Shown: one piece after another, positions 4,901 to 58,873 of the stretch
How positions within the stretch are numbered: position 1 is the stretch's first letter
Layout of the letters: every line of letters starts with the position of its first letter
Source: Candidatus Altiarchaeota archaeon
GTDB taxonomy: Archaea > Altiarchaeota > Altiarchaeia > IMC4 > SCGC-AAA252-I15
Length of the DNA stretch: 64,000 nt
Reading direction: 5' to 3'
Assembly (NCBI GenBank): GCA_043800705.1
Contig: JAZDMS010000023.1
Coordinates: forward strand, 65,584-129,583
Notes under the pieces: generated by a model
What the model was told of the DNA's origin: nothing
What the model saw: only the letters and a program-made list of their open reading frames with translations
Databases searched by the model: none
Program-made: the position numbers and the translations under genes

Positions 4901-5015
4901 GTGCAAGAGGCTGTGCGCCCTCCTTGGCGGCGGAGGCGGTGGGAAGCAGGCGCTGGCGATGGGCGGCGGCAACGCGAAGGACGCTGAACGGATACTGGAA
5001 GAATTAAATTATTAA
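1914..5015 (+). CDS. alaS: Alanine--tRNA ligase, archaeal type
   Basis: CxxCGxxFW N-terminal Zn motif, VGITGRH, LELGNQV, IDMGAGLER, YAIADHTR, editing motifs HHTATH and ACGGTH, C-terminal GGGGGG (DHHA1); start taken at MVLDF. Confidence 0.97.
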   Translation: MVLDFRALKARMKPEFHANFEKYYPAKSLASVGFKRKVCKNCGRGFWSAAERDVCDEPVCSGGYRFIGEKLTRKRFAYKEAWDEYVKVFGKWGYVPIERYPVVCRWYEDLYFVNAGVNDFQPYVISGEVEPPAPAVLEPQFCLRFQDIDSVGITGRHYSGFIMVGQHTFNTAKRHVFFKDEGILQIHEFLTKGLGIKAEEVVYHEDVWAGGGNFGPSMEFFCRGLELGNQVYMQYKVLPDGTSQELKTRVIDMGAGLERWSWFSQGNPMSYDSTFPQVMKHLYKVSGVKPDEKLMLKFGNYAGLLSIDDVDDINSVWGRISKELGIDMAKLKDEVYRMRALYAIADHTRSLLVAIHDGALPSNVGGGYNLRTLLRRCWSLNDEFGLDIEVEKVFEEHIGEFGKWYTDLKETGSLFDIVAVERERYKENQAKGRKLIEKEKDMTVAKMVELYDSHGIAPDVMQKITGIQIPDDFYKKVEERHEKQVKTDEVKEEKDLTGIPLTKLLYYEDSEKLDFEAELLSMSGGLGGDEGHVILDKTLFYPGGGGQETDKGHLQIGSNRYDVVSVEKKKGGIIAHKINNFSRLWGDDSRVDDKVKGYVDKRRRLQLVQHHTATHIVNASARTVLGPHIWQAGAHKSEKFSRLDITHYKAVSQEELKKIEERANEIVREAHPVEINWMRRNDAEGKYGMRLYQGGAVPGTKLRIVSIPGIDTEACGGTHLKNTKEAGRIKLLSAKRIQDGVVRLEFTAGEASEREIREDAEKFILVKIHLDEFLQQQIRIQKKLQRDLEPFMQMQRRMAEIMGPAMQMQKRLAESLEPVERMQEQLRQNLEPLETSFKIIAEKVAPQMEESARIFSVPKEKLGETINRFTTEINQMEEKIMGLGGEPPSDIDLDDTPALGISGTSRYLFDRWKEDRKILEKLQAEASGDLVSDIEAKFTESNVVKHVTSGLMVKALTEAANAAVSKPGRLLILVNMAGDKVNVVVASSGKANAGDVCKRLCALLGGGGGGKQALAMGGGNAKDAERILEELNY
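4233..4442 (+). repeat. Five degenerate 42-nt (14-aa) in-frame repeats inside alaS
   Basis: LQQQIRIQKKLQRD / LEPFMQMQRRMAEI / MGPAMQMQKRLAES / LEPVERMQEQLRQN / LEPLETSFKIIAEK; ATGCAAATGCAG recurs 42 nt apart. Confidence 0.75.
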
Positions 5016-5067
5016 TACATTGCACTACCCTAATAATTTATATATTAGTACATCGTAATGTACTAAT

Positions 5068-6351
5068 GTGGATATCTCTCGGTTGGAGTTGTTCAACGAA
5101 TGGTGGACTACGGGATCGGTGCGTAAGGAGCTCACAAAAGAGTATAGGCGGCCATTATTTGACGAGGTTTTGAAATACCTGAACGACCGGCAGATCATCC
5201 TCATATACGGTCTTAGGAGGGTGGGAAAGTCCACACTCATGTATCAGATAATACAGCATCTCCTAAAGCAGGGAATTGGAGCGGATAGGATATTCCGGTT
5301 CTCATTCGACGACACAGAGGCCCAACTGGATGAGGTCCTGAGGGTTTTTGAGCGGGAGAAGCTAAGGAAGAACTTCGAGCAAGCCGATAGAGTATACGTC
5401 TTCTTCGACGAGATCCAGAAGACCGCGGACTGGCAGAACAAGCTCAAGATATTCTACGACCTCTACCCCAACATAAAATTTTTCATCTGCGGCTCAGCAT
5501 CCATCAGCATACAGAAGAAGGCTAAGGAAAGCCTGGCTGGACGGACATACGACTTCCATATGAAGCCGCTCACTTTTGCTGAATTCCTCAAACTCAAAGG
5601 CATAGATGCGAAGTTCGACCACTGGAAGACCTACAAACGGACTGTAGCCCCATCATTCTACGACCACCTGCGAAAAGGCGGCTTCCCGGAATTGACAGAC
5701 GAAACAGACGAGGAAAAGATAAGAAGCTACGTGAAAAACAACGTGATAGACAGGATACTGTACGTTGACCTGCCGGCCGAGTTCGGCCTCAAGGATCCCC
5801 AGCTGCTCAAGACCATAGTCGAGTTGACGGCAGACCATCCGGGCATGATAGTCAACTACGACGCCCTGAAGAACGACCTGAAAAGGAACAAGCAGACCAT
5901 TATGAGCTACTTCACGTACCTGGAGTACGCCCTCATACTCAAGCTTGTGGCCAACATACGGCCCGGCTTCCTGTCGACGTCACGGAAGATGAGGAAGGCG
6001 TATCACACCAGCACTGCGTTCCCGCTCTCTATTGCAAGAAACCCGGACGACACGCTCATGGGCAGAGTCGTGGAAAACCTGATGGTTCAGGAGCTTGATG
6101 CGGAATATTACTTCCGCGACAAAGGCTTTGAAATAGACTTCATAATAAAAAAGGGCGGGAAGACCATCCCCATAGAGATAAAATACGGCAAACCGGACGC
6201 CTCAAAGTTTGCCAAAGCGCTGGCGAGAATTCAACTGGACAATGGGATAATCGTCACAAAAGACCAGGACCAAGAAACGGAAGTAGACGGCAGAAAAATC
6301 AAAATGATCCCGGCCTGGGCGTTCATACTCTTCAAGGAAAAATTCATCTGA
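5068..6351 (+). CDS. AAA+ ATPase with C-terminal DUF4143 (PD-(D/E)xK-like) domain
   Basis: Walker A GLRRVGKST, Walker B VFFDEIQK, ESLAGR, GGFP, C-terminal EIDF...PIEIKY. Confidence 0.9.
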   Translation: MDISRLELFNEWWTTGSVRKELTKEYRRPLFDEVLKYLNDRQIILIYGLRRVGKSTLMYQIIQHLLKQGIGADRIFRFSFDDTEAQLDEVLRVFEREKLRKNFEQADRVYVFFDEIQKTADWQNKLKIFYDLYPNIKFFICGSASISIQKKAKESLAGRTYDFHMKPLTFAEFLKLKGIDAKFDHWKTYKRTVAPSFYDHLRKGGFPELTDETDEEKIRSYVKNNVIDRILYVDLPAEFGLKDPQLLKTIVELTADHPGMIVNYDALKNDLKRNKQTIMSYFTYLEYALILKLVANIRPGFLSTSRKMRKAYHTSTAFPLSIARNPDDTLMGRVVENLMVQELDAEYYFRDKGFEIDFIIKKGGKTIPIEIKYGKPDASKFAKALARIQLDNGIIVTKDQDQETEVDGRKIKMIPAWAFILFKEKFI

Positions 6352-6420
6352 ACAGGCGATCGGCCCTTTCTTCAGCACACGATGCTCTCCGCAAAATGGA
6401 TACAGAGCGGCGTCGTTAGG

Positions 6421-6463
6421 CGCGAAGGACGCTGAAAGGGTTCTGGGCGAGTTCAAGCCTTGA
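6421..6463 (+). repeat. Displaced copy of the alaS 3' end
   Basis: CGCGAAGGACGCTGAA identical at 4973-4988 and 6421-6436; reads AKDAERVLGEFKP* versus AKDAERILEELNY*. Confidence 0.85.
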
Positions 6464-6464
6464 A

Positions 6465-6812
6465 TTATTGCTCCGCCTCATTACCGTCAATCATGTTCAT
6501 GGCCATGCCGACCCCCACATTTCCGGCATCCTGGAAGAGAAAGTTGCCGGCGGTTTTCATAAGATCCATGACTAAACTAATCCCCGTCATTATGGGATTT
6601 TTATTAAATTGCGTCATCATCTGGTTGGCAAATTCCTCGGCCTGGTGCGTCTGGTCCCCTTCCCCTGGCATAAAGGAAGAGCCGACTATCGGCCCCCTGC
6701 CCCTCATGAAGGAATTGCCCAACAATCCGGTGAGCGTCGCCAACGGCGACTGCTGCTCCATCTGGGGCGACGCAGCTTCCCTGGGTTCAATCATCCTTTG
6801 GGCCATTCTCAC
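6465..6812 (-). CDS. Hypothetical protein
   Basis: ORF directly behind 6813-7121 on the same strand; no recognised motif. Confidence 0.45.
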   Translation of the reverse strand: MRMAQRMIEPREAASPQMEQQSPLATLTGLLGNSFMRGRGPIVGSSFMPGEGDQTHQAEEFANQMMTQFNKNPIMTGISLVMDLMKTAGNFLFQDAGNVGVGMAMNMIDGNEAEQ

Positions 6813-7121
6813 CTATCCGACGCCATCCAGCGTCCTCTCATATATGGTCTTCAGCCTCATCAGGAACTTCAGCTTCTGTTCCTCGTCGATCTTTATTATG
6901 CCCGCATCCACTATGCTGATGTCCTTTCCGTTGGAGAAAACCGCGAGTTTTGAGGACACGGGGCTGCCGAATATTGCGGCCAAATCCTTGTCGGCATTCA
7001 ACTCGTCGGTCAACCTGTAAAGGAGGTCGAGGCGCACGCCTATGCCGGCCTCTCCCTCAACCTTCATCCTGCGTTTTGCCTCGAGAGCTTCGGCCTTCTT
7101 AGCGAGCGATGTCGCATCCAT
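6813..7121 (-). CDS. Hypothetical protein
   Basis: ATG start, protein-like composition, TATA-like element upstream. Confidence 0.65.
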   Translation of the reverse strand: MDATSLAKKAEALEAKRRMKVEGEAGIGVRLDLLYRLTDELNADKDLAAIFGSPVSSKLAVFSNGKDISIVDAGIIKIDEEQKLKFLMRLKTIYERTLDGVG

Positions 7122-7335
7122 GGTAAATTACGTGCATTATGAGTTTATATCCGCCTATGTCCCGTGGATGCATTTTTTCGGATATCACGGCAGCTGTATC
7201 CTCCCCAGGTAGAGCGTCAACAGCATGAGCAGAAGGAGGGCGAACAGGAGGCCGCCTATCACCTCGAATATGGGGTTCTTCACGTTATCAATTCCCCGGA
7301 CACGTATATATTCCGCTCTTTCTTGTACTTGGTAC

Positions 7336-7965
7336 ATGTCACCCCAATTGGACGGGCTCATCGGCCTCACCCTCTATATGGTGGCCTTGATAAACCCCAT
7401 CAGCAAGGTATTCATACTCTCCACGATGGCAAAGCGCGGCTGCCTGAGGGAGGTCTTCATGGTCTCCGTCAAGTCGACGCTCGTGGCTTTCGCGATACTC
7501 ATGGCATCCGCATTAGCCGGCAACTTCATACTCCACGAGGTATTCCACGTGGAGGTGTATTCCCTGAAGGTGGCGGGCGGAATCGTCATATTCTACATGG
7601 GTTTCAGGGCATTGACGAAGGGGGTCTTCTTCGAGGCGAAGGAGAACGGCTCCATCGCCGACATGTCGATCGTCCCCCTCGCGTCGCCGCTCATCGCGGG
7701 GCCTGCGACCATAACGGCGGCGATTTCGATGCCGGCAGAATACGGCATAGCCGCGACCTCGCTCGCGATAATTCTCGGCCTATCCATCAACCTCGCGATC
7801 ATGTCCTTTTCGAAGACCATCGGCAAATTCCTTAACGTCCACAACTTCATGGGCGCCCTCATCAGGATAACGGGCCTGATTGTCGCGACAATCGCCGTCC
7901 AGATGGTTCTCGGCGGGCTTGAATCCTGGATAAAGCTCATACTACAGGCTATTTTATCCGATTAA
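7336..7965 (+). CDS. MarC family membrane protein
   Basis: ALINP, VAGGI, IVPLASPLIAGPATI, RITGLI..TIAVQM motifs; start estimated. Confidence 0.9.
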   Translation: MSPQLDGLIGLTLYMVALINPISKVFILSTMAKRGCLREVFMVSVKSTLVAFAILMASALAGNFILHEVFHVEVYSLKVAGGIVIFYMGFRALTKGVFFEAKENGSIADMSIVPLASPLIAGPATITAAISMPAEYGIAATSLAIILGLSINLAIMSFSKTIGKFLNVHNFMGALIRITGLIVATIAVQMVLGGLESWIKLILQAILSD

Positions 7966-8082
7966 GCGCAGAAGACTGCGGCATTGATGGCGCAGATGAA
8001 TGCGCAGAGGGTGCGCTTAATGGATAAATACCGCGGCCTTTAGGCCGCAGATATTTATTGTCTGCGTCAGATATCTAATGGG

Positions 8083-9636
8083 ATGTACGAAGAGCCTGAC
8101 GACGATCCGGGAAGCCTCATACACGGCAGCAGGGAACTGCAGATACAGATAGTGCTGTCCGGAGTGGTCGTATTGGTCTTTGCACTGGTCGTCGTCATAC
8201 TCCCCCTGCTTTTCACCCCGCCTGACCCGATAATCGCACTCATATTCTCGCTCCTTCTTGCAGCGGGCGGTGCGTTCCTCGGAGGCTCCCTCATATTTGG
8301 CTACTTCAAGGTGCGGGTCGGAGCCGAAGCCAGAAGGTACGCGCAGGAGATGTTCGAAAAGGCGTTCGAAGACGGGCATGCGAGGAAGAGCATGGAGGAG
8401 TTGTTCCTTGACGAGAAGGAGCGTCTCGTCGCAGAGCTGGAAGAGCAAAAGCGGCAGTACTTCGACGAATTGCAGGGAGAATTCAATAAACGGCTGGACG
8501 AGGAGGAGAACGCCCTGATGAACGACGTCCGCAGGGAGTTCGAGAAGCAGATGGAGGCCGAGAAGCAGCTTTACCTCACCAAGGTCGACGAAGACATCCG
8601 GGGCCAGGTCACTGAGGAACATAAGGCATACCAGGACTCCGTCAAGTCGGAATACACAAAAAGGCTCGAAGACGAGAAGAAAGCCTATCAGAAGGCCATC
8701 CGGGAGGAGTTCGAAAAAAGGCTCCAAGAGGAGAAGAAGGCCAATGAGGCCAGGATTGCCGAACACGACGCAGAGCTGCAGGCGCAGAAGAGGAAGTTCT
8801 CCGAGCAGGTCGCGGACCTGGAGGGCAAAAGAAGGAAAGACGTCGAGGAAAACGAGGCCAAGCAGGCCGTGTTCGACGAGCACATACAGTCCGAGAAGAA
8901 GATATTCTCCGACCAGCTGGCGGAGACGGAGAAACACTACCAGGCGGAGAAGAAGGCCCTCGAGGAGGCTCTCCGCGTCGAATTCGAGCGGAAGGCCGAT
9001 GTAGAAAAGCAGGCCTACACGGACATCATCAGGAAGGATTTCGAGTACTGGAAGAAGGAGTTCACGGACGCGTTTAGAAAGGAGATAATGCGGGACGTGC
9101 CGCCCGAGAAGCCGCCGGAGCCTCCGAAGCCGGAGCCTTCGCCGCCGTGGGTCAAGACGGAGGAGCCCGCTGCCCCCAAGGCGAAGGAGGACCTCAGCGA
9201 CATATTCCCTAAGGAGAAGATAGCGGCGGAGCCTGCGTCAGCGGAAGAGGAGGTTCACCGTTCGTTCGATTTCAAGAGCATGGGCCCGCGAGAGCAGGTG
9301 GGCTCCGCGGTCGAACTCCTCCTTAGCGCGGGAGGAAAGGGAGTCAGCCTCACCTTCAGGAACTCTAAGACCCGCAGGCAGGTCGAGCTGAAGGCCAGGG
9401 GGAAGGACATCCTGTTCGAAGCGGCGGTCGACGAGATAAGCATCAAGTCGAGGCTGATGCTGAGGGAGTTCGCGGCACAGAACAAGCTTCCCATGGAAAA
9501 GAACGACGATTACATCCGCATCTCATTCGGCTCCGACGAAAGAGCAGTCAAGGACCGGCTGAAGGAGGCCCTGGAGACGGCATTCGCCACCCCGATAGAG
9601 AACCTGGCGTTCGACGTGAAAACGGCAGAGAACTGA
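8083..9636 (+). CDS. Membrane-anchored coiled-coil protein
   Basis: Two N-terminal TM helices, long E/K-rich heptad region, Pro-rich linker, small C-terminal domain. Confidence 0.75.
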   Translation: MYEEPDDDPGSLIHGSRELQIQIVLSGVVVLVFALVVVILPLLFTPPDPIIALIFSLLLAAGGAFLGGSLIFGYFKVRVGAEARRYAQEMFEKAFEDGHARKSMEELFLDEKERLVAELEEQKRQYFDELQGEFNKRLDEEENALMNDVRREFEKQMEAEKQLYLTKVDEDIRGQVTEEHKAYQDSVKSEYTKRLEDEKKAYQKAIREEFEKRLQEEKKANEARIAEHDAELQAQKRKFSEQVADLEGKRRKDVEENEAKQAVFDEHIQSEKKIFSDQLAETEKHYQAEKKALEEALRVEFERKADVEKQAYTDIIRKDFEYWKKEFTDAFRKEIMRDVPPEKPPEPPKPEPSPPWVKTEEPAAPKAKEDLSDIFPKEKIAAEPASAEEEVHRSFDFKSMGPREQVGSAVELLLSAGGKGVSLTFRNSKTRRQVELKARGKDILFEAAVDEISIKSRLMLREFAAQNKLPMEKNDDYIRISFGSDERAVKDRLKEALETAFATPIENLAFDVKTAEN

Positions 9637-9658
9637 TGTTTCGGCCGCGACCGAAACA
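9637..9658. promoter_or_regulatory. Inverted repeat TGTTTCGG-N6-CCGAAACA, possible operator or terminator
   Basis: Perfect 8-bp arms just after a stop codon and upstream of an HTH regulator gene. Confidence 0.5.
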
Positions 9659-9712
9659 AACATCGATGGTCTTTATTATGCAGTTACCTTATATGCATTT
9701 GGAAGGGCTTAT

Positions 9713-10582: not shown

Positions 10583-10586
10583 CCCC

Positions 10587-14660: not shown

Positions 14661-14719
14661 AGATGGTATATGGATTTATGACAAATATATCCTATGCAGG
14701 CAATCCATGGTTCCAATGG

Positions 14720-14835
14720 AGTCTCCGGTTTGAAGTCCCCGGCCTGCAGTCTCCGGTCTACAGTCTTCGATCTTGAAGTCCTGCGAGAATCGAGGACCGG
14801 AGACTGAGGGCCCAAGACTGAAGATCGAGGGCCGA
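14720..14835. repeat. Inverted array of degenerate 7-nt repeats
   Basis: AGTCTCC GGTTTGA AGTCCCC GGCCTGC AGTCTCC GGTCTAC AGTCTTC..., then the complementary arm CGAGGAC CGGAGAC TGAGGGC CCAAGAC TGAAGAT. Confidence 0.75.
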
Positions 14836-30922: not shown

Positions 30923-31124
30923 TCAGAAGCCTTGGTCCGCCATCTTCTTCAGGCGGTCGATGTTGTCCTTCACCTGCTTCTGTATCTTGCCCAGCTCCGC
31001 CGTGTTGGGTTCGGGCTTGAACAGGTGCCTGAACCTGCCCTGCAGCTTCAGGTATTCTTCGACAGGCTTCATCTTCGCGGAGTCGACCGGCATGTTCAGC
31101 TTGTGTTTGCCGTCGATTATCTCG
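30923..31124 (-). pseudogene. Displaced, diverged copy of the last 66 codons of porB
   Basis: Collinear 202-nt match to 32442-32643 with mostly synonymous differences. Confidence 0.9.
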
Positions 31125-31203
31125 GACGCCTGGGGCATGTTATAACCGGGCAATCATATTAATTTATGCGAGTATTCCAGGGCAAAACCGCAACAGCCCT
31201 AAA

Positions 31204-32427
31204 ATGCCCGACAACCGATCACAACTTAAATCAGGAAAAATGATCATAAACTCCGGATATAAAAAAATTCTAAAAATACTGGCAATTGTTGGCATCATCA
31301 TCGCAATAATCGCGCTCGGACTTGTTGCCGATAATATCCGGAACTCGAGCTCCCTTTCCCTCTACGATTTGCCCTCTTTTCTTAAGGAGTCATCAAGGGA
31401 AGCGATCTATGACAAACTCACGAAGAATTCATGGTGCACACCGAAAGGCATTAACTCATATGTTTATTCTTTTAAACCTGATGGCACATATGCGTGGAAT
31501 CAATTTGAGGATTATGTTCCTTCACCAAGCGGCAGCGGTAGATGGAATTTTGAGCAGAATCCGGCGGGCGAATGGTTCTTGCTTTACGACAACGGTCAGC
31601 GCCTTAGATTCACCCTTTACAGGTTCGACAGGCTTATATTGGAGTATGCTAATCTCCGCCCCTGCGACCCCATAACAACCCCTAGAAAGTATGATGCCTC
31701 TTCCCTGCCGCCAGTCCGGTCTCCTAATCAAGACGATAAAAAGCTTGTCGCCAATCGGTGGAAAAGGGCCAATGACATTGATTTGGACTATGAACCGACC
31801 CTTGTCGAATTCAGGGATAATTTTGAATACGTGACAACATACCGGTATGGTGAGTGCCAGAATAGCGGCAGCTGGTATGCAAAGGCAGGTCAGATCAAAG
31901 CCAGTAGCACGACAGACAAATGCGACCCAAGGGATGACATCTACCCTGAAGCGTTTCCCGGTGAATGGTCAGAAGATGGATTCCTCCTGTTAAACAATGA
32001 TGATGACCTGTACGTACCTGAAGATTACCCCTTAATGAAAGGCGTTATTTGGCGGATATTCTCATTTTCTGACATTATGGAAATCAAAGTCGAGTATGAT
32101 ATGCCGATCAGAGCCGGGGTGCCGAATAGATTCGACGTGGAAATGAAAAACGTTGCCAAAAGAGAAGGACCGATGACGATCCGACGGTTCTCCGTCACAA
32201 AGGATTATGGCGATTACCGAAACACCGACGGTTCAATCGCGCAGGTCGATGAAATCGCAGGATTGGATCTAGGCTCAAGAATTCTAAAGCCGAACGAGAC
32301 ATACAATTTTTCCTTGTCCGTAACCTTTGAAAAGCCGGGCAAGCAGCGTATGTACTTATACGCTTTGGTGGATGGTAGGACACAGAAATGGGATTTTAAG
32401 AAGAACTACAACATCAATGTTCTTTAG
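31204..32427 (+). CDS. Secreted or membrane-anchored beta-rich protein (cassette cargo)
   Basis: N-terminal TM; two similar units F..D..Y...SG.W; Ig-like C-terminus; more AT-rich than its neighbours. Confidence 0.75.
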   Translation: MPDNRSQLKSGKMIINSGYKKILKILAIVGIIIAIIALGLVADNIRNSSSLSLYDLPSFLKESSREAIYDKLTKNSWCTPKGINSYVYSFKPDGTYAWNQFEDYVPSPSGSGRWNFEQNPAGEWFLLYDNGQRLRFTLYRFDRLILEYANLRPCDPITTPRKYDASSLPPVRSPNQDDKKLVANRWKRANDIDLDYEPTLVEFRDNFEYVTTYRYGECQNSGSWYAKAGQIKASSTTDKCDPRDDIYPEAFPGEWSEDGFLLLNNDDDLYVPEDYPLMKGVIWRIFSFSDIMEIKVEYDMPIRAGVPNRFDVEMKNVAKREGPMTIRRFSVTKDYGDYRNTDGSIAQVDEIAGLDLGSRILKPNETYNFSLSVTFEKPGKQRMYLYALVDGRTQKWDFKKNYNINVL

Positions 32428-32441: not shown

Positions 32442-33357
32442 TTAGAATCCTTTTTCAGAGAGGGCCTTCACCAGGTCTATCTTGTCTTTGACCTCTTTCT
32501 GTATCTTCGCCAGTTCGGCGGTGTTCGGCTCCGGCTTGAACAGGTGCCTGAAGCGGCCTTGCAGCTTCAGGTATTCCTCAACAGGCTTCAATTTTGTCGA
32601 GTCGACGGGCATGTTCAGCTTGTGTTTGCCGTCTATGATCTCGAATAATAGGGTCGCCCCGGTCTCTACGCCGAGCTTTGCGACCTTGATCGTGGCCTCC
32701 GGCTCGATCCTCCATCCCGGGACGCACGGCACTATGACGTTGATGAATGTGGGCCCCTTCGTCTCGAGGGCGGTCTTCACCTTCCTGAGGAAGTCCGTGT
32801 GGTAGCCCACGGACGCGGTCGCCAGGTATGGCGAGCCGTGTGCCGCGATTATGTGCATGAGGTCCTTCTTGTATTCCGTCTTTCCGATGCTGGCCTTCCC
32901 GGACGGAGACGTCGTGGTCGCCGCGCCGTATGGCGTCGCCCCGCTCCTTTGTATGCCGGTGTTCATGTAGGCCTCGTTGTCGGTGCAGACGTATGTGATG
33001 TTGTGCCCCCGCTCGAATGCGCCTGAAAGGCACTGCAGCCCGATGTCGTAGGTTCCCCCGTCCCCCCCCGATGACGAGCACCTTAGTGTCCTCCTTCCCG
33101 AGGACCTTAAGCGCCCTCTCGACGCCGGATGCGACCGCGCTGTTGTTCTCGAACGCGCTGTGCACCCACGGGACCTCCCATGCTGTCTCCGGGTACGGGG
33201 TCGATACGACTTCCATGCAGCCTGTGCAGTGGCAGACTACCGTGTTGGGGCCTGCGACCTTCATCAGAAGCCTCAGGGCCAGCGACTCGCCGCATCCTGC
33301 GCACGCCCTGTGGCCGCGCGCGAAATACTCCTTCTCGTCAAGTCCCAGTATCGCCAT
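32442..33357 (-). CDS. porB: Pyruvate:ferredoxin oxidoreductase beta subunit, frameshifted at a G8 run (33062-33069)
   Basis: [18 protein letters not shown] in one frame; [18 protein letters not shown] in the next; removing one G restores GGDGGT. Confidence 0.9.
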
Positions 33358-36925: not shown

Positions 36926-37078
36926 ACAGCATGCCGCTGTAGGTGCGAGACATCCGTCTCGCCTACATCGTCTTCGCTTCGCGAAGCCAATGTAGCTCAG
37001 ACCGGGACGCTCAAAACTGCTGCGCAGTTTTGGCGTATCAAGACGCGTTCGGCGTCTTGAGTAGATCACTCGGCTGAA
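36926..37078 (+). pseudogene. Fragmented copy of the tRNA-Phe leader and 5' half, interrupted by two hairpin inserts
   Basis: 36926-36942 = 37105-37121; 36991-37007 = 37117-37133; 37067-37078 = 37137-37148. Confidence 0.85.
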
Positions 37079-37111
37079 TATAACGGCGAAAAAACATAAA
37101 AAATACAGCAT

Positions 37112-37208
37112 GCCGCTGTAGCTCAGACCGGGAGAGCACTCGGCTGAAGAGGCCTGTATAAGGCACTCCGAAACCGAGGTGTCGCGTGTTCAAATCACGT
37201 CGGCGGCA
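37112..37208 (+). tRNA. tRNA-Phe(GAA) with 23-nt intron at 37/38 (37150-37172)
   Basis: Cloverleaf GCCGCTG/CGGCGGC, anticodon stem CTCGG/CCGAG, relaxed BHB motif. Confidence 0.93.
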
Positions 37209-37260
37209 AGAACCGTTTCATTTTTAGAGAAATTGTGGTTCTCATACCCCCGGGAAAACT

Positions 37261-38202
37261 ATGGCTGACGTTTTGATCAAAGACGGAGTTCTGCATAAGT
37301 TGTGGGTTACATCTGATGAGGTGCATGACTTCGAGCCGATAGTCAAGTATCATGTTAAGGATATTTTTGGTGTTGATTGCGAATACTTCCAAAAACAGAA
37401 ACTAAAGTCCCTTGCAGATAATCGTTCTATCCCGGATGGTTTCGTCATAGATTACAAGAATCAGATGTGGTACATAGTTGAATTAAAGCTACTTTGTGAT
37501 GATGCAGTAAAACGGATTCCGGGCCAGATTATAAGCTATAAAAACGCAGTAAAGAGCATAGGTACAAAGAAGCAGATATATGATTCCATCCGCAGTCAAA
37601 TTTCTAAACCTCCTGCATTCCTTTATGACCTAATTTTCGACAAGAACCCTTCAATTGTGATTATTATAAACAGTCTCGATGGAGAGCTTGGTGAACAATT
37701 CGAAGAAAATGTTAACGGCGCGGATAAAAACGCCAAAATACTTGTTTTCAAGACTTTTGCCCCTGAGTCTACTGATCCGAGAAAGATACACTGCCATGTA
37801 TTTGAACCTATGCACTCAACTAGTCCATTCAAAACAAAAAAGACAACTTCCACAGAACTAGCTTCAACGCCAGAATTAAAGCGTATGAAACGTGGTGAAA
37901 TTACGACACAACTAACATACAGAATGCCCATTCTTGAAACTCTTCTGGAAATGGGTGGAAGGGGTAAAACAAAAGAGGTTCTGGATAGTATCGGTGTTAA
38001 AATGAAGGGTATCCTAAAAGCGGTAGATTACACGAAACAGCCATCCGGCTTTGATATTCGCTGGAGAAACACAGCGGCTTGGGAAAGGCAACAGATGACC
38101 ACTGACGGATTATTAAAATCATCTAAGGAGTCAGGCCGTGGTTTCTGGGAGATTTCCGATACAGGTAGACGATATTACGACGAAAACAAACCTCACAAAT
38201 AA
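37261..38202 (+). CDS. PD-(D/E)xK nuclease-like domain plus Mrr N-terminal-like winged helix (putative restriction/defence protein)
   Basis: IPDG...IVELK; YRMPILETLLEMGG...RWRNTAAWER...GLL...RG.WEISD.G; AT-rich. Confidence 0.75.
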   Translation: MADVLIKDGVLHKLWVTSDEVHDFEPIVKYHVKDIFGVDCEYFQKQKLKSLADNRSIPDGFVIDYKNQMWYIVELKLLCDDAVKRIPGQIISYKNAVKSIGTKKQIYDSIRSQISKPPAFLYDLIFDKNPSIVIIINSLDGELGEQFEENVNGADKNAKILVFKTFAPESTDPRKIHCHVFEPMHSTSPFKTKKTTSTELASTPELKRMKRGEITTQLTYRMPILETLLEMGGRGKTKEVLDSIGVKMKGILKAVDYTKQPSGFDIRWRNTAAWERQQMTTDGLLKSSKESGRGFWEISDTGRRYYDENKPHK

Positions 38203-38332
38203 TCAGGTCTCGGTTTCGTAGTCACCTCAAGTCCTGTACTGTATGTGGCGCTTAAGTCCCTATAACAGTTTCGGGGGAATCAGGGGTAACTTAGACCTGA
38301 GGGGGCGGTAGCCTCCTGCGGTTCGGGTGGAG

Positions 38333-38348
38333 ATCACGTCGGCGGCAA
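38333..38348 (+). repeat. Direct repeat of the tRNA-Phe 3' end (att-like)
   Basis: ATCACGTCGGCGGCAA identical to 37194-37209. Confidence 0.85.
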
Positions 38349-52909: not shown

Positions 52910-53818
52910 ATGGAGATAACCTTCCTCGGCACATCAGGCACAATCCCAACCGAAAAACGCGGACTATCCGCCGTCCACCTCAACTACATGGGGCAGCCGA
53001 TGCTTTTCGACTGCGGGGAGGGGACCCAGCGCCAGATGCGCCTCGCAGGACTAAACTTCATGAGCATCGACAACATATACCTCACCCACCTGCACGCAGA
53101 CCACTTCCTCGGCCTCGGCGGGATGCTGCAGAGCATGGACTTCCTCGAGCGAAAACCCCCCCTCACGATCCACGGCCCGCCGGGAACCAAGGAGACCATC
53201 GAAAAGCTCCTGACGCTCGGGACGTTCCAATTGGACTACCTCATCGTCAAGACGAACGAAGTCCAGGAAGGCCTCGTCCACAGGGGGGATAGATACTCGG
53301 TGACCTGCGCGAAGACCGCGCACACGAAATACAGCGTCGCATACTGCTTCACAGAAGACCCACACAGGAAATTCGACAAACCCAAGGCGCTCGCCCTCGG
53401 CGTACCCGAAAGCCGCCTGTTCTCGAAACTCCAAAACGGAGAATCCGTCGAAGTCAAAGGAAATACGATAACCCCCGACATGGTCCTCATGGACCCCATA
53501 CCCGGCAGAAAGGTCGTCTACACCGGCGACACACGGCCCTGCAGGGCGGTAGAGGAACTGGCGAAGGGGGCGGACATACTAATACACGAATGCATGTTCA
53601 GCCACGAAGACCTCGAAGACGTCAAAGACATGGCACACAGCACCACCAAACAGGCCGCAGAGATAGCGAAGAACGCGGGCGTCAAGAGGCTCTACCTCAC
53701 CCACATCAGCCAAAGGTACACAGAACCTGAGAAACTCCAGGCCGAAGCCAGGGAAGTCTTCCCCGAATCCTACATAGCCGAAGACTTCATGAAAGTGCGG
53801 GTGGAGAAGCATTGGTAG
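52910..53818 (+). CDS. rnz: Ribonuclease Z
   Basis: FLGTSG..PT..R, FDCGEGTQ, THLHADH, YTGDT.P, HE, HST, LTHISQRY. Confidence 0.96.
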   Translation: MEITFLGTSGTIPTEKRGLSAVHLNYMGQPMLFDCGEGTQRQMRLAGLNFMSIDNIYLTHLHADHFLGLGGMLQSMDFLERKPPLTIHGPPGTKETIEKLLTLGTFQLDYLIVKTNEVQEGLVHRGDRYSVTCAKTAHTKYSVAYCFTEDPHRKFDKPKALALGVPESRLFSKLQNGESVEVKGNTITPDMVLMDPIPGRKVVYTGDTRPCRAVEELAKGADILIHECMFSHEDLEDVKDMAHSTTKQAAEIAKNAGVKRLYLTHISQRYTEPEKLQAEAREVFPESYIAEDFMKVRVEKHW

Positions 53819-53878
53819 ACTTCAGAGTCATCGAGGCCACGGGCCGAAGATGGCTCCTTCGCGAACCTTATAAGGTTC

Positions 53879-53918
53879 AGCCGAAGACTTCATTAAAGTC
53901 AAAATAGACAAACACTGG
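53879..53918 (+). repeat. Displaced copy of the rnz 3' end
   Basis: AGCCGAAGACTTCAT identical at 53776-53790 and 53879-53893; AEDFIKVKIDKHW versus AEDFMKVRVEKHW. Confidence 0.85.
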
Positions 53919-53998
53919 TTATGGGGGCAGGAACCCATCAGGCCAAGAGAAACCGCATCGGGCCTTTTTATTCCTCGCCATACCTAATTATAAAAACC

Positions 53999-54071
53999 GG
54001 GACCATGGGGTAGCTTGGTATCCTTCTAGCTTTGGGAGCTAGTGACCTGCGTTCAAATCGCAGTGGTCCCA
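53999..54071 (+). tRNA. tRNA-Pro(TGG), no intron
   Basis: GGGACCA/TGGTCCC acceptor, CTAGC-TTTGGGA-GCTAG, GTTCAAATC. Confidence 0.95.
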
Positions 54072-54109
54072 TAATTTAGCTTTTTTATCCCCTATTCTAA
54101 TAATTTCTC

Positions 54110-54793: not shown

Positions 54794-54832
54794 GGGAAAA
54801 AATAATCGGAATGTGCATTTTTATTATTATGA

Positions 54833-55045
54833 TTGTCGATAGATACCCCGGCCGGGCCGATTCCTTTAAGTCAACCTAAAATCGCACAAAATGCGGGAGC
54901 GGGAAAGATAATCGTCACCCCTGAAGGCAACCAACCGGACCTCAAAGCCGACGCATTTGCACCCCGGCATGTGACCGAAAATAACATACAAGCCCTATTG
55001 GCTCTCGTCCGCCAGCTTGAAGGCCCGCAGAGACACACCGTTTGA
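54833..55045 (+). CDS. Possible small hypothetical protein
   Basis: ORF fills the gap; non-ATG start. Confidence 0.3.
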   Translation: MSIDTPAGPIPLSQPKIAQNAGAGKIIVTPEGNQPDLKADAFAPRHVTENNIQALLALVRQLEGPQRHTV

Positions 55046-55052
55046 TATGGGA

Positions 55053-55700
55053 TTATTTTAGAATCGTCGTGACGTCCTGTATCACGTCCGTCTTTGTTAT
55101 GACTGTCAGGATGTCGTCCTTCTTCAGTATCGTGTTGTCGTCGGCTATGATAACCTCCCCTTTCCTGTAGACGACGCCAATCAATGCGCCGAACGGGAGA
55201 CCGACGTCCTTCACCTTCCTGTTGTCCAATCTCTCGTTGGTGAGTTTGATCTCGACGACTTCGGCGTTCCCGCCCGCGATGCTTATCATGCTTCTGCCCT
55301 TGTCCTTCGTCAGGGCGTTTTTTATCTGGCTGACCGCCGCGGAGACGATGCTTATAGCCGCAGTGATCTCGAGGCCTATGTAGAGGTCCTTCTTGTCAGG
55401 CTCGTTCACTCTCGCAACGATCTTCGCCACCTTGAACCTCTTAAGGATTTGGCAGATCGTCAAATTGGTGTTGTCGTCGGCGGTCAGGACCGCGACGGCG
55501 TCAGCCCGCTCGACGCCGGCATCCTTCAGCATCTCAGTGCTCGACCCATCCCCGTGGATGACTATTGCGTCGATGGATTCCGCGAGGAACTTGCTCCTTT
55601 CATCGTCCTTCTCGATGATGACGAGTTCATGGCCTTCGCTTATCAGGTGGTTCACGAGGGATTTGCCGATATTGCCACAGCCGATGACGATAACGTACAT
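55053..55700 (-). CDS. trkA: TrkA family potassium uptake regulatory protein
   Basis: IGCGNIG, GDG....L..AG, T.DD..N, RCK-C domain. Confidence 0.92.
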   Translation of the reverse strand: MYVIVIGCGNIGKSLVNHLISEGHELVIIEKDDERSKFLAESIDAIVIHGDGSSTEMLKDAGVERADAVAVLTADDNTNLTICQILKRFKVAKIVARVNEPDKKDLYIGLEITAAISIVSAAVSQIKNALTKDKGRSMISIAGGNAEVVEIKLTNERLDNRKVKDVGLPFGALIGVVYRKGEVIIADDNTILKKDDILTVITKTDVIQDVTTILK

Positions 55701-55776
55701 TTTTTTAACAGTTTAGAGTATAGCCGCGGCAGCTATAAATACCGCTTATAACCGCGGAAAAACATATCATACCTCG

Positions 55777-56625
55777 ATGAAGACGTCGGAGATACTGGTA
55801 GACGCCATCGGTTACGTGCGGAGATTCTGCGGCGAAATATTCGTCATAAAAATCGGCGGCGAAGCCCTCCTGGACAAGGACGTCGTCGACTCCGTCGCAC
55901 AGGACCTCATACTCCTGAACGCGCTCAACATCAAGACCGTAGTCGTCCACGGGGGCGGCGTCGAGATATCCCAAGCCATGGAAAAGTTCGGCAAGAAGCC
56001 GACATTCGTCCGCGGCCTCAGGGTCACTGACCAGGAGACGATGGACATCGTCGAGATGGTGATGACCGGGAAGGTCAAGCAGGAACTGACGTCGCGGATA
56101 CAGAAACACGGCGGACAGGCTGTCGGGCTTTCCGGCAAATACGGCAAGCTTTTCGAAGCCGTGAAAAAGAAAGGAAAAGTAGACCTCGGCCTCGTGGGAG
56201 AGGTCAAGAAGGTGAACCCGAAGGTCGTCATGACTCAGCTAGATGGGGGATACATACCCGTAATTTCGCCGATAGGATTCGCACCAGACGGGAGCAGCCT
56301 CAACATCAACGCAGACACCGCCGCATCGGAGCTGGCGATAGCCCTAGTGGCGAGCAAGCTCATAGTCCTAACCAACGTCGACGGAGTATTGGACAAGAAT
56401 AAGAGCCTCATTAAGCGCCTCACCGCGGCCGATGCCAAAAAACTCATAGGAAACGGAATCATCTCCGAAGGCATGATACCAAAGGTCGAGTCCTGCGTCA
56501 AGGCACTGAAAGGCGGTATCGCAAGGACCCACATAGTGAAGGCATCCACCCACGCAGTCCTTGAGGAGATACTGACGACGACAGGCACAGGGACGATGAT
56601 CACCCTAAAAAAAGCCGCAGACTGA
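55777..56625 (+). CDS. argB: Acetylglutamate kinase
   Basis: VIKIGG, VVVHGGG, GLRVTD, NINADT.A, LTNVDG, GMIPK, GTGT. Confidence 0.96.
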   Translation: MKTSEILVDAIGYVRRFCGEIFVIKIGGEALLDKDVVDSVAQDLILLNALNIKTVVVHGGGVEISQAMEKFGKKPTFVRGLRVTDQETMDIVEMVMTGKVKQELTSRIQKHGGQAVGLSGKYGKLFEAVKKKGKVDLGLVGEVKKVNPKVVMTQLDGGYIPVISPIGFAPDGSSLNINADTAASELAIALVASKLIVLTNVDGVLDKNKSLIKRLTAADAKKLIGNGIISEGMIPKVESCVKALKGGIARTHIVKASTHAVLEEILTTTGTGTMITLKKAAD

Positions 56626-56627
56626 CA

Positions 56628-56885
56628 ATGGAATTCAAACCATACGTCATCGAACTCGAGAACGCCAACCTAGTCCTACTCAAAGCGAAAAACGGATACG
56701 TCATGTGCGGCCTACTCAACATCGAAACTGCGGAGAGGCTCGGGCAGGCGGCAGCCATCGTCACAGCAGTCAAGAGCGCCGAAGACGCATTGAAGGCGAA
56801 AATAAAATCTGCAACGACCGCGGCCATGAAACTCGGAGTCAAAGAAGGGATGAGCGGGGAAGAAGCCATTAAAAAGATGTCCTGA
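56628..56885 (+). CDS. YunC/DUF1805 family protein
   Basis: GYVMCG.LN, AA.V..V, A..LGV..GM.G.EA. Confidence 0.85.
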   Translation: MEFKPYVIELENANLVLLKAKNGYVMCGLLNIETAERLGQAAAIVTAVKSAEDALKAKIKSATTAAMKLGVKEGMSGEEAIKKMS

Positions 56886-56886
56886 C

Positions 56887-57789
56887 ATGGAACTAAGAAA
56901 GTTTTTAACGAGCGATGTCGTAACGATCGGGTCAAAGGCGACTCTGCTCGAAGTCGCCACATTGATGACCAGAAAAAACATCAGCTCAATCATCGTGGCA
57001 GACGAAGGCGTAGTCTCCGGGATAATCACAGAACGGGACTTCCTACACCTTGTCAAGGACGGCAAGAACCAGACAGAGATGATAGCAAAGGACCTAATGA
57101 GTTCTCCAGTCATCACAGCTGACATAAAAATAACCGTCGAGGAAGCCGCGACTTTAATGCACGACAAAGGCATCCGGCAACTGCCAATAACCGAGGACGG
57201 CACACTGGCTGGGATAATAACGGAGACCGACATAGCGAACGCGATAAGGACCGTCCAACATGACGTCGAGATCGCCCTAGAGGAAACGATAGTCGAAACC
57301 CCGATGACCCACAACCTCGAGTTCGGAAAAACATATCTCTACCTGGAGCCTAAACCCGGCAATAGCATAAGCGCATTCGTTGACCTGGTAAAGCACGGAA
57401 CTGCAGGCCTCCTGATAACCAGACGGGATCCCGCACTTATCGCAGGCGAATGGGGCATCGACAAGATTCCAATGCTCTGGCTCACCGACACCAGCCCCCC
57501 ATGCCACCACGCAGACCCGCACAACGTACAGGGGATCTCGATCCTTGTCAGCAACTACCTCTCCCAGGCGTGCAAAACGGTGCTGATGATGGACGGGATA
57601 TCCTATCTCATCACCCAAAACAGATTCGAGACCGTCCTAAACCTGATCCAAAACGTACACGACAAGGCGGTAAGCTCCAAGTCCATATTCATCCTCTCGC
57701 TCAATCCGGAAACCCTGACCAAGCAGGAACTGGAACTGATAAAGCAGGAGACCGACGAGACGGTCCGTCGGCTAGGACCCTCCCTATAA
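56887..57789 (+). CDS. CBS-pair plus DUF835 domain protein
   Basis: GIITERD and GIITETD CBS motifs; GLLITR..P, LWLT, DGI.YL...N.F. Confidence 0.85.
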   Translation: MELRKFLTSDVVTIGSKATLLEVATLMTRKNISSIIVADEGVVSGIITERDFLHLVKDGKNQTEMIAKDLMSSPVITADIKITVEEAATLMHDKGIRQLPITEDGTLAGIITETDIANAIRTVQHDVEIALEETIVETPMTHNLEFGKTYLYLEPKPGNSISAFVDLVKHGTAGLLITRRDPALIAGEWGIDKIPMLWLTDTSPPCHHADPHNVQGISILVSNYLSQACKTVLMMDGISYLITQNRFETVLNLIQNVHDKAVSSKSIFILSLNPETLTKQELELIKQETDETVRRLGPSL

Positions 57790-57955
57790 AAATCGCACAT
57801 CTAAAAAATCGGCTGTATCCAAGCGGCCCCACGACTTGCACGGAGCATCACAGCCGGGACTCAACTTCGTCCGCCTCAGCAGCGGGCCACCGGCGGGCAC
57901 TTCTCGACCCCGCCCCCGCTTCTTTTAGGGGGAAGGTCAGAATTAAGAAGGCTTT

Positions 57956-58006
57956 TAGTTTTCAGTTTCCGGCTCTCTAGACCGAAAACCGTAAACTGAA
58001 AACTGG
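57956..58006. repeat. Inverted 7-nt-period repeat
   Basis: AGTTTTCAGTTT (57957-68) pairs with AAACTGAAAACT (57993-58004); units ACCGAAA ACCGTAA ACTGAAA. Confidence 0.65.
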
Positions 58007-58010
58007 GTGT

Positions 58011-58096
58011 TTTGGGCCGGGAGCGGAATCGCCGAAAACTGATTCACAGTTTTGGCGCGCTGGCTCCCTTCGGAGGCCGTCGTTGAATCCGCGTCA
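58011..58096 (-). repeat. Displaced copy of the tRNA-His 3' end with a 53-nt hairpin insert (58030-58082)
   Basis: TTTGGGCCGGGAGCGGAAT and TTGAATCCGCGTCA are contiguous at 58773-58805 but split here. Confidence 0.9.
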
Positions 58097-58666
58097 TTTT
58101 TTCCCAGATAAGAAGAACACAATCCAGCTTGATATGAAAACAAATATGGGTGCGGAAATGCATATTTCAAAAATTGGCAAACCCGTTCGCATGAAGATAA
58201 CCTCATAGCCCATAGAGAATATGTCTTTGCCATGGGATAAAATTGCCCCGCCCCCCGGAGAAATTGCCAAGACAAACACACCTAAACAACTTAATGCTGC
58301 CATCATACCTAATGTGATGGTTAGTATTACAGAGCTGATTATGGCAGGAGTCCTCCATTTTAATGCCTCTCGCTCAGATGATAGTATTATGTAGAACGAT
58401 AGCGTCATGATGATAAATTGGAAAAATAAAAATTCTAAAAAACTAATCATCGGCAAATTTGTCATGAAAATAAAAAACCTTCGGTCATGAGTAACAATCC
58501 ATAAAATTGCCTGAAACACATAAACCAGGATGAATATCCCGCATGTCGCAACTCCCCCCAGGACGGACATTATTATCTTTTTTTTCGGCCCTTTAATGTT
58601 ACTTTCTTCAACGCCTTGAACCATCATAACCTCATTGGGTAGCGGGATTAAATACTGATCGGTCAC
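58094..58666 (-). CDS. AT-rich membrane protein (cassette cargo)
   Basis: About 4 TMs; its TGA stop is the first 3 nt of the duplicated tRNA fragment. Confidence 0.65.
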   Translation of the reverse strand: MTDQYLIPLPNEVMMVQGVEESNIKGPKKKIIMSVLGGVATCGIFILVYVFQAILWIVTHDRRFFIFMTNLPMISFLEFLFFQFIIMTLSFYIILSSEREALKWRTPAIISSVILTITLGMMAALSCLGVFVLAISPGGGAILSHGKDIFSMGYEVIFMRTGLPIFEICISAPIFVFISSWIVFFLSGKK

Positions 58667-58776
58667 CTACGGCTATGATTAACTCAATTGTTTCATCACC
58701 CCTTAGAACAACCCTACAAGGAGATAATAGTCTATAGAACACAAGGATTCTACTACAGCTAGGAAAAAATGGTTTG

Positions 58777-58873
58777 GGCCGGGAGCGGAATTTGAATCCG
58801 CGTCACCGGATTGCTGCAGCCTGTTTGTGGCTGCCACAGTCCAGGAGGATAACCTAACTACCCCATCCCGGCC
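58777..58873 (-). tRNA. tRNA-His(GTG) with encoded G-1 and a 22-nt BHB intron (58812-58833)
   Basis: GCCGGGA/TCCCGGC acceptor, C discriminator, CTGT/GCAG central helix with 3-nt bulges. Confidence 0.93.

Follow-up and report, generated by a model that had tools for sequence, protein, structure and literature searches.

The stretch of DNA analysed here, which we call the window, comprises 64,000 nucleotides of contig C14 of a 2.0-Mb metagenome-assembled genome (MAG) of Candidatus Altiarchaeota, referred to below as G000 (43 contigs, 87.5% complete, overall GC content 0.554). An archaeal rRNA operon at 59331-64000 and intron-bearing tRNA genes mark the window as archaeal. Five conserved genes in the window (alaS, a porB-like gene, rnz and the genes for tRNA-Phe and tRNA-His) are followed at a short distance by a second copy of their own 3' end. 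A preliminary description, made from the letters of the window, had reported these five repeats, and all of them are present, position for position. As it also stated, four of the pairs each enclose exactly one AT-richer open reading frame (ORF), here termed cargo, with a GC content of 0.39-0.49 as against 0.554 for the genome, and the rnz pair encloses only a 60-nucleotide spacer with a palindrome (53819-53878). The repeats are 200 nucleotides long at porB, 41 at rnz, about 43 at alaS and 25-33 at the tRNA genes. We call the copy that is joined to the gene body the end in use, and the copy beyond the insert the stranded end. Gene types were assigned by Pfam profile matches, which were obtained for alaS (tRNA-synt_2c), rnz (tRNase Z) and the neighbouring ftsZ. 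Related genomes are labelled G001, G003 and so on; the nearest of them has about 80% DNA identity to G000.

The alaS repeat covers 4973-5023 and again 6421-6471, which places the second end 1448 nucleotides downstream of the first. The end in use (4973-5015, plus strand) consists of a core, GCGAAGGACGCTGAA, and an AT-rich tail whose product finishes in ILEELNY and a stop. The peptides encoded by the two ends are AKDAERILEELNY for the copy in use and AKDAERVLGEFKP for the stranded copy, each closed by a stop codon, and their GC contents are 0.40 and 0.58, respectively. Between them lies a gene (5068-6351, plus strand) for an ATPase with AAA_14 and DUF4143 domains in Pfam and a D...ExK motif, which is preceded at 5016-5067 by a TATA-like leader of its own and a palindrome. 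The stranded end (6421-6463, plus strand) is native-like, ending as alaS does in G001, G003 and G005. The body of alaS is itself a mosaic in its GC content at third codon positions (GC3), which is 0.84-0.90 in the 5' half, 0.36-0.51 at 3291-3890 and 4191-4790, and 0.72-0.75 between and after these stretches. The low-GC3 stretches align poorly to the relatives, most of which lack a segment corresponding to about 4131-4490; these stretches may be older imported tracts or an insertion.

The porB-like gene lies on the minus strand. Its two pieces in the window have no Pfam match; the intact ortholog in G001 has the TPP_enzyme_C domain. A 200-nucleotide segment at 32444-32643 recurs at 30925-31124 with 80% identity, and the last 66 codons of the gene are found again 1519 nucleotides downstream in a frame that is still open. 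Comparison with the relatives' sequences marks the end in use (32442-32643, minus strand) as an imported allele. The stranded end (30923-31145, minus strand), an open frame of 76 codons finishing in NIDRLKKMADQGF and a stop, is native-like. The cargo (31204-32427, plus strand) encodes a 407-amino-acid protein with an N-terminal hydrophobic segment, a GC content of 0.453 and no Pfam family. Further upstream, the porB-like gene shifts its reading frame at a C8/G8 run (33052-33069): the alignment of the G001 protein is in frame -3 upstream of the run and in frame -1 beyond it. The cause is a sequencing error or else a genuine frameshift.

The gene for tRNA-Phe (37112-37208, plus strand) contains a 23-nucleotide intron, and its 3' end (37185-37209), which is the repeat in use, recurs as a stranded end of 25 nucleotides at 38324-38348 on the same strand, 1139 nucleotides downstream. 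The cargo (37261-38202, plus strand, GC content 0.40) encodes a 313-amino-acid protein whose N-terminal part has a PD...ELK motif and whose C-terminal part is an Mrr_N domain, and a hairpin module that we call M1 (38269-38323, plus strand) stands immediately to the left of the stranded end. Upstream of the live gene we read a stranded 5' half of tRNA-Phe (36990-37085, plus strand), in which the motif M4 is located and whose D-loop region is interrupted by a hairpin insert of some 55 nucleotides. The second tRNA gene, at 58776-58872 on the minus strand, also has an intron and is that of tRNA-His by our reading of its GTG anticodon and G-1:C73 pair; ARAGORN gave it as '???' and as tRNA-Asp with an intron. 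Its 3' end is likewise the repeat in use. The cargo at this locus (58094-58666, minus strand) encodes a 190-amino-acid hydrophobic protein with a GC content of 0.389 and no Pfam match, and its TGA stop codon falls within the stranded 3' part of tRNA-His (58008-58096, minus strand), whose T-loop is interrupted by a two-hairpin insert of about 54 nucleotides. The element AAAACTG..CAGTTTTGGCG is common to the hairpin inserts of the stranded tRNA-Phe 5' half and of the stranded tRNA-His copy (58030).

At rnz, the 41-nucleotide repeat (53776-53816 and 53879-53919) places the second end 103 nucleotides downstream of the first. The end in use (53776-53818, plus strand), which encodes AEDFMKVRVEKHW and a stop, is the native-like one. 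The plus-strand spacer that follows ends in the 16-nucleotide palindrome GAACCTTATAAGGTTC (53863-53878), and the second end (53879-53919, plus strand) is an AT-rich, atypical copy that encodes AEDFIKVKIDKHW and has no stop.

We examined the same loci in relatives for empty or alternative sites, the check that the preliminary description had proposed, and found empty or alternative sites at the porB, rnz, alaS and tRNA-Phe loci. In seven of nine relatives, porB is followed by ftsZ within approximately 55-250 nucleotides, with neither cargo nor a second copy, and in the other two the interval holds 2-3 kb of other DNA. None of the six relatives examined at rnz has a second rnz end. The ATPase gene is absent after alaS in 10 of 11 relatives. 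In the eleventh, G024, a one-contig genome from another family, alaS is followed by a DUF4143 ATPase gene, by a 118-nucleotide repeat (94% identity) of the alaS end and its downstream hairpin, and then by a 27-nucleotide repeat of the ATPase gene's own end. The alaS-end copy of G024 (contig C1, L023, 228-1884) is joined to those last 27 nucleotides of the ATPase gene at a 9-nucleotide repeat, GCTGTTTTT, and from its sequence the arrangement looks like a stacked older cassette that has lost its gene by partial deletion. No Mrr-like gene stands beside tRNA-Phe in the eight relatives examined: the site is bare in G001, G004 and G022, G005 and G006 have a 12-nucleotide 3' copy about 79 nucleotides downstream, G003 and G009 have 5' fragments upstream, and G021 has M1 with a 3' copy. 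The split tRNA-His 3' part occurs in G001 as three tandem units of the same design, and stacked copies are found at tRNA-Val, at tRNA-His (G001) and at alaS (G024). A search of metagenome contigs with the porB cargo returned one 1.5-kb contig that carries a 52%-identical homolog and has no porB fragment in its short flanks.

The two copies of a gene end differ mainly at silent sites. For 12 gap-free coding pairs pooled, the proportions of silent and replacement sites that differ (pS and pN) are 0.53 and 0.10, a ratio of approximately 0.18 (S = 158.3 and N = 585.7 sites; sd = 84.5 and nd = 57.5 differences). This pool excludes the pair on C26, which has a 1-nucleotide misregistration, and the pair on C25, which lacks an identified gene; when C26 is included, the differences total 101.7 silent and 103.3 replacement. 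The porB pair alone gives a pS of 0.60 and a pN of 0.10 over 66 codons. Since a freely decaying duplicate would give a pN/pS ratio above 0.5, the observed ratio indicates that the copies are two functional alleles, and we reject neutral decay of a true target duplication for the diverged pairs on account of this silent-site bias. Most pairs are 72-93% identical, and 100% identity is found at only a few loci (C33:4000, C33:12163 and C23:4162).

As to which copy is native, the preliminary description held that incoming DNA brings its own allele of the gene end. The alaS products of the same-genus relatives G001, G003 and G005 end in EFQP, RFNP and EFKP, respectively, resembling the stranded copy and unlike the tail in use, and same-genus porB products ending in NIDRLKRLSDQGL and VDRLKELSDKGC likewise resemble the stranded NIDRLKKMADQGF and differ from the end in use. 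The idea of an incoming allele is thus supported for alaS and porB, as it also is by the pooled pN/pS ratio. At rnz the order is the opposite: the product ends in KHW in all six relatives examined, the rnz end in use fits this pattern, and the downstream copy is AT-rich and has no stop. The copy in use is the AT-richer one at differing sites, as the cargo is, in 8 of 11 informative pairs. As a rule, the imported allele is joined to the gene body and the native end is stranded beyond the insert.

To gauge frequency, the whole MAG was compared with itself in 8-kb windows, and the repeats were classified with gene calls from a crude in-house caller and with ARAGORN tRNAs. The comparison yielded 440 direct and 51 inverted local repeats. 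Among the direct high-scoring segment pairs, 27 match a gene 3' end to downstream non-genic DNA and 16 match a gene 5' end to upstream non-genic DNA; none of the inverted ones falls in either class, compared to 43 direct. Counted by feature, 33 have 3'-type and 25 have 5'-type repeats, in raw lists that include whole-gene tandem paralogs and doubly counted neighbours. Removing by eye the whole-gene tandem paralogs, the doubly counted neighbours and the heptamer repeats (C12:76829, C28:2325 and C30:46652) leaves about 40 loci, an inexact figure. Among the 34 ARAGORN tRNAs, 10 have 3'-type and 9 have 5'-type copies. The duplications are 17-258 nucleotides long and the inserts range from 45 nucleotides to 1.5 kb. 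Self-alignment therefore bears out the earlier suggestion of a dense, genome-wide pattern of brackets around single accessory genes. Of the proposal that gene 3' ends are duplicated, the duplication stands and the restriction to 3' ends does not, since 5' ends are duplicated as well (16 segment pairs). Many loci carry no gene. Ten other proteins tested as cargo comprise one each of the DUF6498, GNAT, winged helix-turn-helix (wHTH) and 23S-IVP types, five proteins without a family and one PolB, the last probably not cargo. With cargo this varied, an element-encoded enzyme cannot be a general requirement in cis. When run with long introns, ARAGORN joins tRNA halves that lie 1.4-2.4 kb apart at C7:20130-22111, C29:8681-10159 and C35:162802-165287 (tRNA-Pro, tRNA-Thr and tRNA-Phe, respectively); each probably marks another cassette lying between a tRNA and a stranded 3' end.

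In most pairs, similarity begins abruptly with an identical block of 14-26 nucleotides that codes for a conserved motif, and the tails diverge beyond it. This block sits at the inner border of the repeat, with deviations at C18:34805, on C26 and in G024. No sequence motif shared among the blocks was found, which does not fit a single sequence-specific integrase. In alaS, GC3 remains native-like (0.75) up to the identical block. At two loci, C18:34805 and alaS of G024 (118 nucleotides at 94% identity, plus 27 nucleotides), the import also contains sequence homologous to that downstream of the gene, as would be expected for DNA that comes from an orthologous locus. No termini common to the inserts were found, and the inserts show neither the terminal inverted repeats nor the fixed short duplication of insertion sequences (IS) and miniature inverted-repeat transposable elements.

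The side of the insert that adjoins the stranded copy is structured. The 45 nucleotides beside the stranded copy have a mean fold energy of -13.7 kcal/mol, as against -9.7 kcal/mol at the other end of the insert and a background of -8.9 kcal/mol (sd 4.0, 400 random 45-mers), and the stranded side folds more stably in 20 of 30 loci. These fold energies substantiate the earlier remark that hairpins sit at the displaced copies. M1 occurs in the MAG as three near-exact copies and eight BLAST matches, and also in G003, G007 and G021; in the MAG and the relatives it usually adjoins a stranded tRNA or gene end directly. Only the hairpin GGGGGC..GCCCCC was supported by RNAalifold on six M1 copies. Rfam returned chance-level matches for M1, and no match to it was found in a viral contig collection; the archaeal named records with M1 are only Candidatus Altiarchaeota archaeon, Methanobacteriota archaeon and uncultured archaeon. 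Hairpins of the type CCAGC..GCTGG beside CGAA/TTCG keep a constant polarity to the stranded copy, whether the locus is of the 3' or the 5' type. At tRNA-Gly, tRNA-Val, tRNA-Ala and tRNA-Pro, units are built of an inverted 10-11-nucleotide copy of the target, GTAAA(AA), a small hairpin, a T run and the 3' copy. Such units lie at C23:4162-4267, C35:49807-50006, C15:52010-52131 and C2:19259-19430; their inverted T-arm/acceptor-strand copy and their 3' copy form a long stem, and tRNA-Val has three units in tandem.

We then searched the order with the window ATPase and considered 29 non-self loci among the matches listed. Within those matches the nearest homologs are 46-47% identical in amino acid sequence and belong to another family of the order. 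Direct repeats of 20-94 nucleotides with 82-93% identity bracket 13 of the 29 loci, one of which (L066) is a doubtful tandem 20-mer. By comparison, 7 of 250 random genes of similar size are bracketed, all of these controls being drawn from the one genome G000, and 3 of the 7 are cassettes already listed. The repeats at the ATPase loci correspond to the 3' or 5' end of an adjacent gene or lie between genes, and in 7 of 12 loci examined the ATPase stop codon lies within 8 nucleotides of the right repeat or inside it. In the ATPase leaders, a TATA-like box is followed by a palindrome that closely precedes the start codon. Most leaders have a palindrome of the GTACAT..ATGTAC or TGTTAAC..GTTAACA type (L060, L064, L079, L061 and L067-L069), which looks like an operator for autoregulation. 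A search of genome contigs with the window ATPase protein found no relative, and neither did searches of viral contigs with that protein or with the Mrr-like one. A PD-(D/E)xK-type motif is present in two of the four window cargos. We found no published link of DUF4143 to mobility; the passages that treat the family describe a PD-(D/E)XK fold of unknown function.

The preliminary description had seen no integrase or transposase in the window, and our searches agree: none of the integrase and transposase families searched for has a match on C14, the Y2 search being one without a working control. A search of the whole genome for XerA, integrase and Y1 genes detected one Xer-like tyrosine recombinase of 272 amino acids (PF00589) on contig C17. 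The MAG further contains two IS110-like (DEDD) genes, 2.3 kb apart on opposite strands (C35:71213-74361), and two DDE_Tnp_1 genes, on C41 and C18. Y1, TnpB, serine recombinase, Cas1, reverse transcriptase, rve and Rep_trans gave no match in the MAG, and no integrase or transposase domain was found in the cargo tested. Across the order, PF00589 occurs in 30 of 49 genomes, mostly with one to three matches each, and in none of the four same-genus relatives. Some genomes of the order have longer tyrosine recombinases (open frames of 380-500 amino acids), and no convincing pair of attachment (att)-type repeats was found around three such genes (in G016, G014 and G006).

The pattern is real and frequent; its architecture, its empty sites, its imported alleles and its spread through the order are shown. 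We tentatively favour, as the leading reading and one that may well prove wrong, insertion with long target duplication, which at these loci would fall on the borders of conserved genes and displace gene ends; the cassettes would then spread by homologous recombination through the short conserved block. The machinery that makes and spreads the cassettes is most likely the general recombination and repair machinery of the host, and not an integrase carried by the element. Both the use of homologous recombination and the step of origin are what we infer from the sequences compared. In its anatomy, the imported piece combines the short conserved block with its own allele of the remainder of the gene end and with a hairpin module, a single self-contained gene with its promoter, or both. 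To spread, a cassette between two copies of the conserved block would enter the orthologous site by two crossovers in that block; equivalently, a circle popped out between the repeats could re-enter by one crossover. By either route the duplication would be rebuilt, with the donor tail in use and the recipient tail left behind. Only very conserved anchors, such as tRNAs and the ends of essential genes, would permit spread between diverged lineages, which would explain where the cassettes are seen. As for their origin, a hairpin module or gene would have been inserted together with a duplication of 17-258 nucleotides, possibly in the repair of a hairpin-associated break. The recombination account explains the identical block at the border, the GC3 of alaS, the silent recoding, the AT-rich tails in use, the bias to conserved anchors and the missing integrase.

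Several observations weigh against this account. The hairpin families (M1, CCAGC..GCTGG-CGAA and the GTAAAAA units) recur at different targets with fixed polarity; this looks like the defined end of an element and is not predicted by plain homologous recombination. Inserts of 45-130 nucleotides are too small to have been double-stranded circles, which calls for a different mechanism at the origin step at the least. Homology downstream of the gene is found at only two loci, and most pairs have none. At rnz the order is reversed, the native-looking end being the one in use. A sliding identity comparison of porB with G001, G003, G006 and G004 located no crossover, as all relatives are about 70-80% identical and too distant for such mapping. 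The MAG holds the two IS110-like genes, and it is 87.5% complete, so a recombinase could sit on an unbinned element.

The recurrence of fixed-polarity modules implies that the origin step involves recognition of a structured end, and for this reason we keep a trans-acting enzyme as a strong rival. It is possible, if less probable than spread by recombination, that the cassettes are small non-autonomous integrative elements that carry a replacement gene end and are moved by a structure-specific or programmable recombinase acting beside the hairpin, supplied by an unbinned plasmid or virus or by a host Xer-like or IS110-like gene. Such an enzyme would account for shared hairpin families that adjoin the stranded copy with one polarity in 3' and 5' events alike and for the more stable folding on that side. 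The identical inner-border block resembles an att core (while also coding for a conserved motif), tRNA 3' ends are classical targets, and candidates exist in the 380-500-amino-acid tyrosine recombinases of some genomes of the order and in the two IS110-like genes of the MAG. Archaeal elements are also described as integrating in 3'-distal parts of protein genes and replacing the stop codon (in the portions of PMC6563490 drawn on here). Yet an enzyme of this kind would have to serve about 40 targets that share no core motif, and no integrase lies in or near any cassette. PF00589 is missing from all four same-genus relatives, M1 from the viral contig collection and att-type repeats from around the three integrase genes of relatives, while two inserts include host-type downstream sequence and the polarity at rnz is reversed. 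A different source of mobility would be nucleases in the cargo: the AAA_14-DUF4143 ATPase (PD-(D/E)xK fold) and the Mrr-like protein would cleave empty sites, into which their own gene would then be copied at repair, in the style of a homing endonuclease, with the hairpin-only and remaining cassettes as passengers or relics. The excess of bracketed ATPase loci (13 of 29 listed, against 7 of 250 control genes), the stop codons within 8 nucleotides of or inside the right repeat in 7 of 12 loci, the conserved D...ExK motif and a patchy distribution, with the best homologs among the matches listed in another family of the order, all fit this proposal, as does the restriction-type nature of the classical cargo in insertion with long target duplication, according to the material used from PMC2853133. 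We nevertheless regard it as rather unlikely: the cargo is diverse and mostly not nuclease-like (membrane and secreted proteins of unknown kind, DUF6498, GNAT, wHTH, 23S-IVP), many loci are gene-free, the controls come from a single genome, the DUF4143 passages name no activity, and the membrane-protein cassette has an equally tight junction of ORF and repeat without a nuclease. A broader version, which we consider doubtful, is that the AAA_14-DUF4143 ATPase-nucleases are the autonomous, mobilising members of a hitherto undescribed class of elements, each made up of one gene, whose insertion at the borders of genes entails long target duplication, and that the hairpin modules and other cassettes are their non-autonomous passengers.

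The loci might also be decayed remnants of integrase-bearing islands, proviruses or plasmids, deletion having left one gene or a spacer between attL and attR. The layout at tRNA and gene 3' ends does resemble attL/attR as these appear in the consulted text of PMC6563490, but dozens of integrase specificities would be needed, all of them erased; remnants of 45-230 nucleotides recur with shared hairpin modules, cassette borders are tight on promoter and stop codon, and among the integrase-bearing cryptic elements given there for Thaumarchaeota the smallest measures 2.6 kb. This makes decay a distinctly unlikely origin. That strain-chimeric contigs set two variant gene ends one behind the other is conceivable for a MAG of 43 contigs, but the pS of about 0.5 between copies is far above strain variation, intact foreign ORFs lie between the copies, and the same architecture is found in independent assemblies, including a one-contig genome. 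Given these assemblies and so deep a divergence, an assembly artefact is very unlikely. Integration by a diversity-generating retroelement, by a system of clustered regularly interspaced short palindromic repeats (CRISPR) or by a casposon was dropped, there being no reverse transcriptase and no Cas1, and the targets being housekeeping genes. We also dropped simple tandem duplication as a general cause; the spacer is not repeated after the second copy except at C18:34805, and the cargo is foreign.

Several known systems resemble this pattern in part. The element e14 in icd of E. coli is an integrative element of the gene-restoring 3'-end type. The mobile endonuclease ORFs of fungal mitochondria come with a duplicated C-terminal gene segment: such an ORF enters at the 3' end of a gene and brings along a foreign version of that end, while the native one comes to lie downstream. 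Here, by contrast, only two of the four window cargos look nuclease-like, and many loci have no ORF. The cassettes are like those of integrons in being compact, in holding one gene and in having a hairpin-forming site, and unlike them in having no IntI-type integrase and no attI platform, in occupying about 40 scattered sites, and in that the repeats derive from the target. A closer likeness is to insertion with long target duplication (Furuta, Abe and Kobayashi 2010, PMC2853133), described for bacterial restriction-modification units, mostly of naturally competent species. In the sections of that report used here, mobility genes are absent, the repeats sometimes overlap a gene 3' end, and no archaeal case passed the screen. 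The likeness lies in a gene unit between long, variable direct repeats of a single-copy target without a mobility gene, and in the atypical GC content of the insert, the empty site in a related genome and the restriction-type cargo. Repeats longer than about 30 bp that are present as one copy in the uninterrupted target were found at porB (seven of nine relatives) and rnz (six of six examined), with lengths of about 43 nucleotides at alaS and 25-33 nucleotides at the tRNAs, and no transposase or integrase was found in the cargo or on C14. The repeats here differ, in that they are not near-identical copies of the recipient sequence, as in those sections, but deeply diverged alleles, one of them foreign, and the loci number about 40 in one archaeal genome and include gene-free hairpin modules, tRNA genes and 5' ends.

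Thaumarchaeal integrated mobile genetic elements (Krupovic et al. 2019, PMC6563490) recombine, in the account taken from that paper, with 3'-distal parts of tRNA or protein genes by means of an integrase they encode, and restore the gene. As in our loci, the element supplies the gene end and stop, the old end forms a direct repeat beyond it, and arrays arise by re-use of the site. Those elements have an integrase, at least 2.6 kb of DNA and one target each, whereas we find inserts of 45 nucleotides to 1.5 kb at dozens of targets with no integrase gene inside them next to an att site, the sole PF00589 match being on C17. For the displacement of C-terminal ends in Rhs and type VI secretion system genes, homology-facilitated illegitimate recombination without an integrase has been proposed (Kirchberger et al. 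2017, PMC5361080). The parts of that paper relied on here describe a conserved upstream anchor, an imported 3' part, an old 3' end moved downstream and arrays by repeated displacement, and a constant 5' part, an imported 3' part and older ends downstream are what we see at alaS and porB. Those loci encode toxins and immunity proteins under diversifying selection; the anchors here are housekeeping genes and tRNAs with silent recoding and unrelated cargo. We found no publication on this pattern in Altiarchaeota, although the supplementary site lists of PMC6563490 and PMC2853133 may contain closer precedents.

If the favoured reading, insertion with long target duplication and spread by recombination, is correct, accessory genes in this archaeal order would enter mainly as tiny self-contained cassettes that have the ends of tRNAs and conserved genes as their anchors, with no element-encoded integrase, and insertion with long target duplication would extend to archaea, tRNA genes, 5' ends and gene-free hairpin modules. 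With about 40 loci per genome and empty or alternative sites in relatives, the order offers a natural data set on how insertions arise. For annotation, stranded ends yield spurious short ORFs and pseudo-tRNA halves. The bracketed DUF4143 ATPases are a testable lead for a family of unknown function; were the doubtful proposal of autonomous ATPase-nucleases true, a widespread archaeal and bacterial ATPase family of that description would be a new kind of DNA-insertion enzyme.

Two further features of the window recur elsewhere. Tandem arrays with a 7-nucleotide (14-nucleotide) period, of the ttttcgg/ttctcag type, lie at 57950-58012 and 14717-14765, and heptamer arrays are also found in the MAG at C12:76829-77005, C28:2325-2449 and C30:46652-46853; they sit immediately 3' of genes, beside several stranded copies. 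In the 16S-23S spacer, ARAGORN calls an 89-nucleotide intron in the gene for tRNA-Ala (about 61022-61186, C14:126605-126769). This intron contains a hairpin of the CTTTCTTT type, a family that is also present in spacers at duplicated gene ends, and the tRNA-Phe intron of G021 contains a hairpin of the same type.

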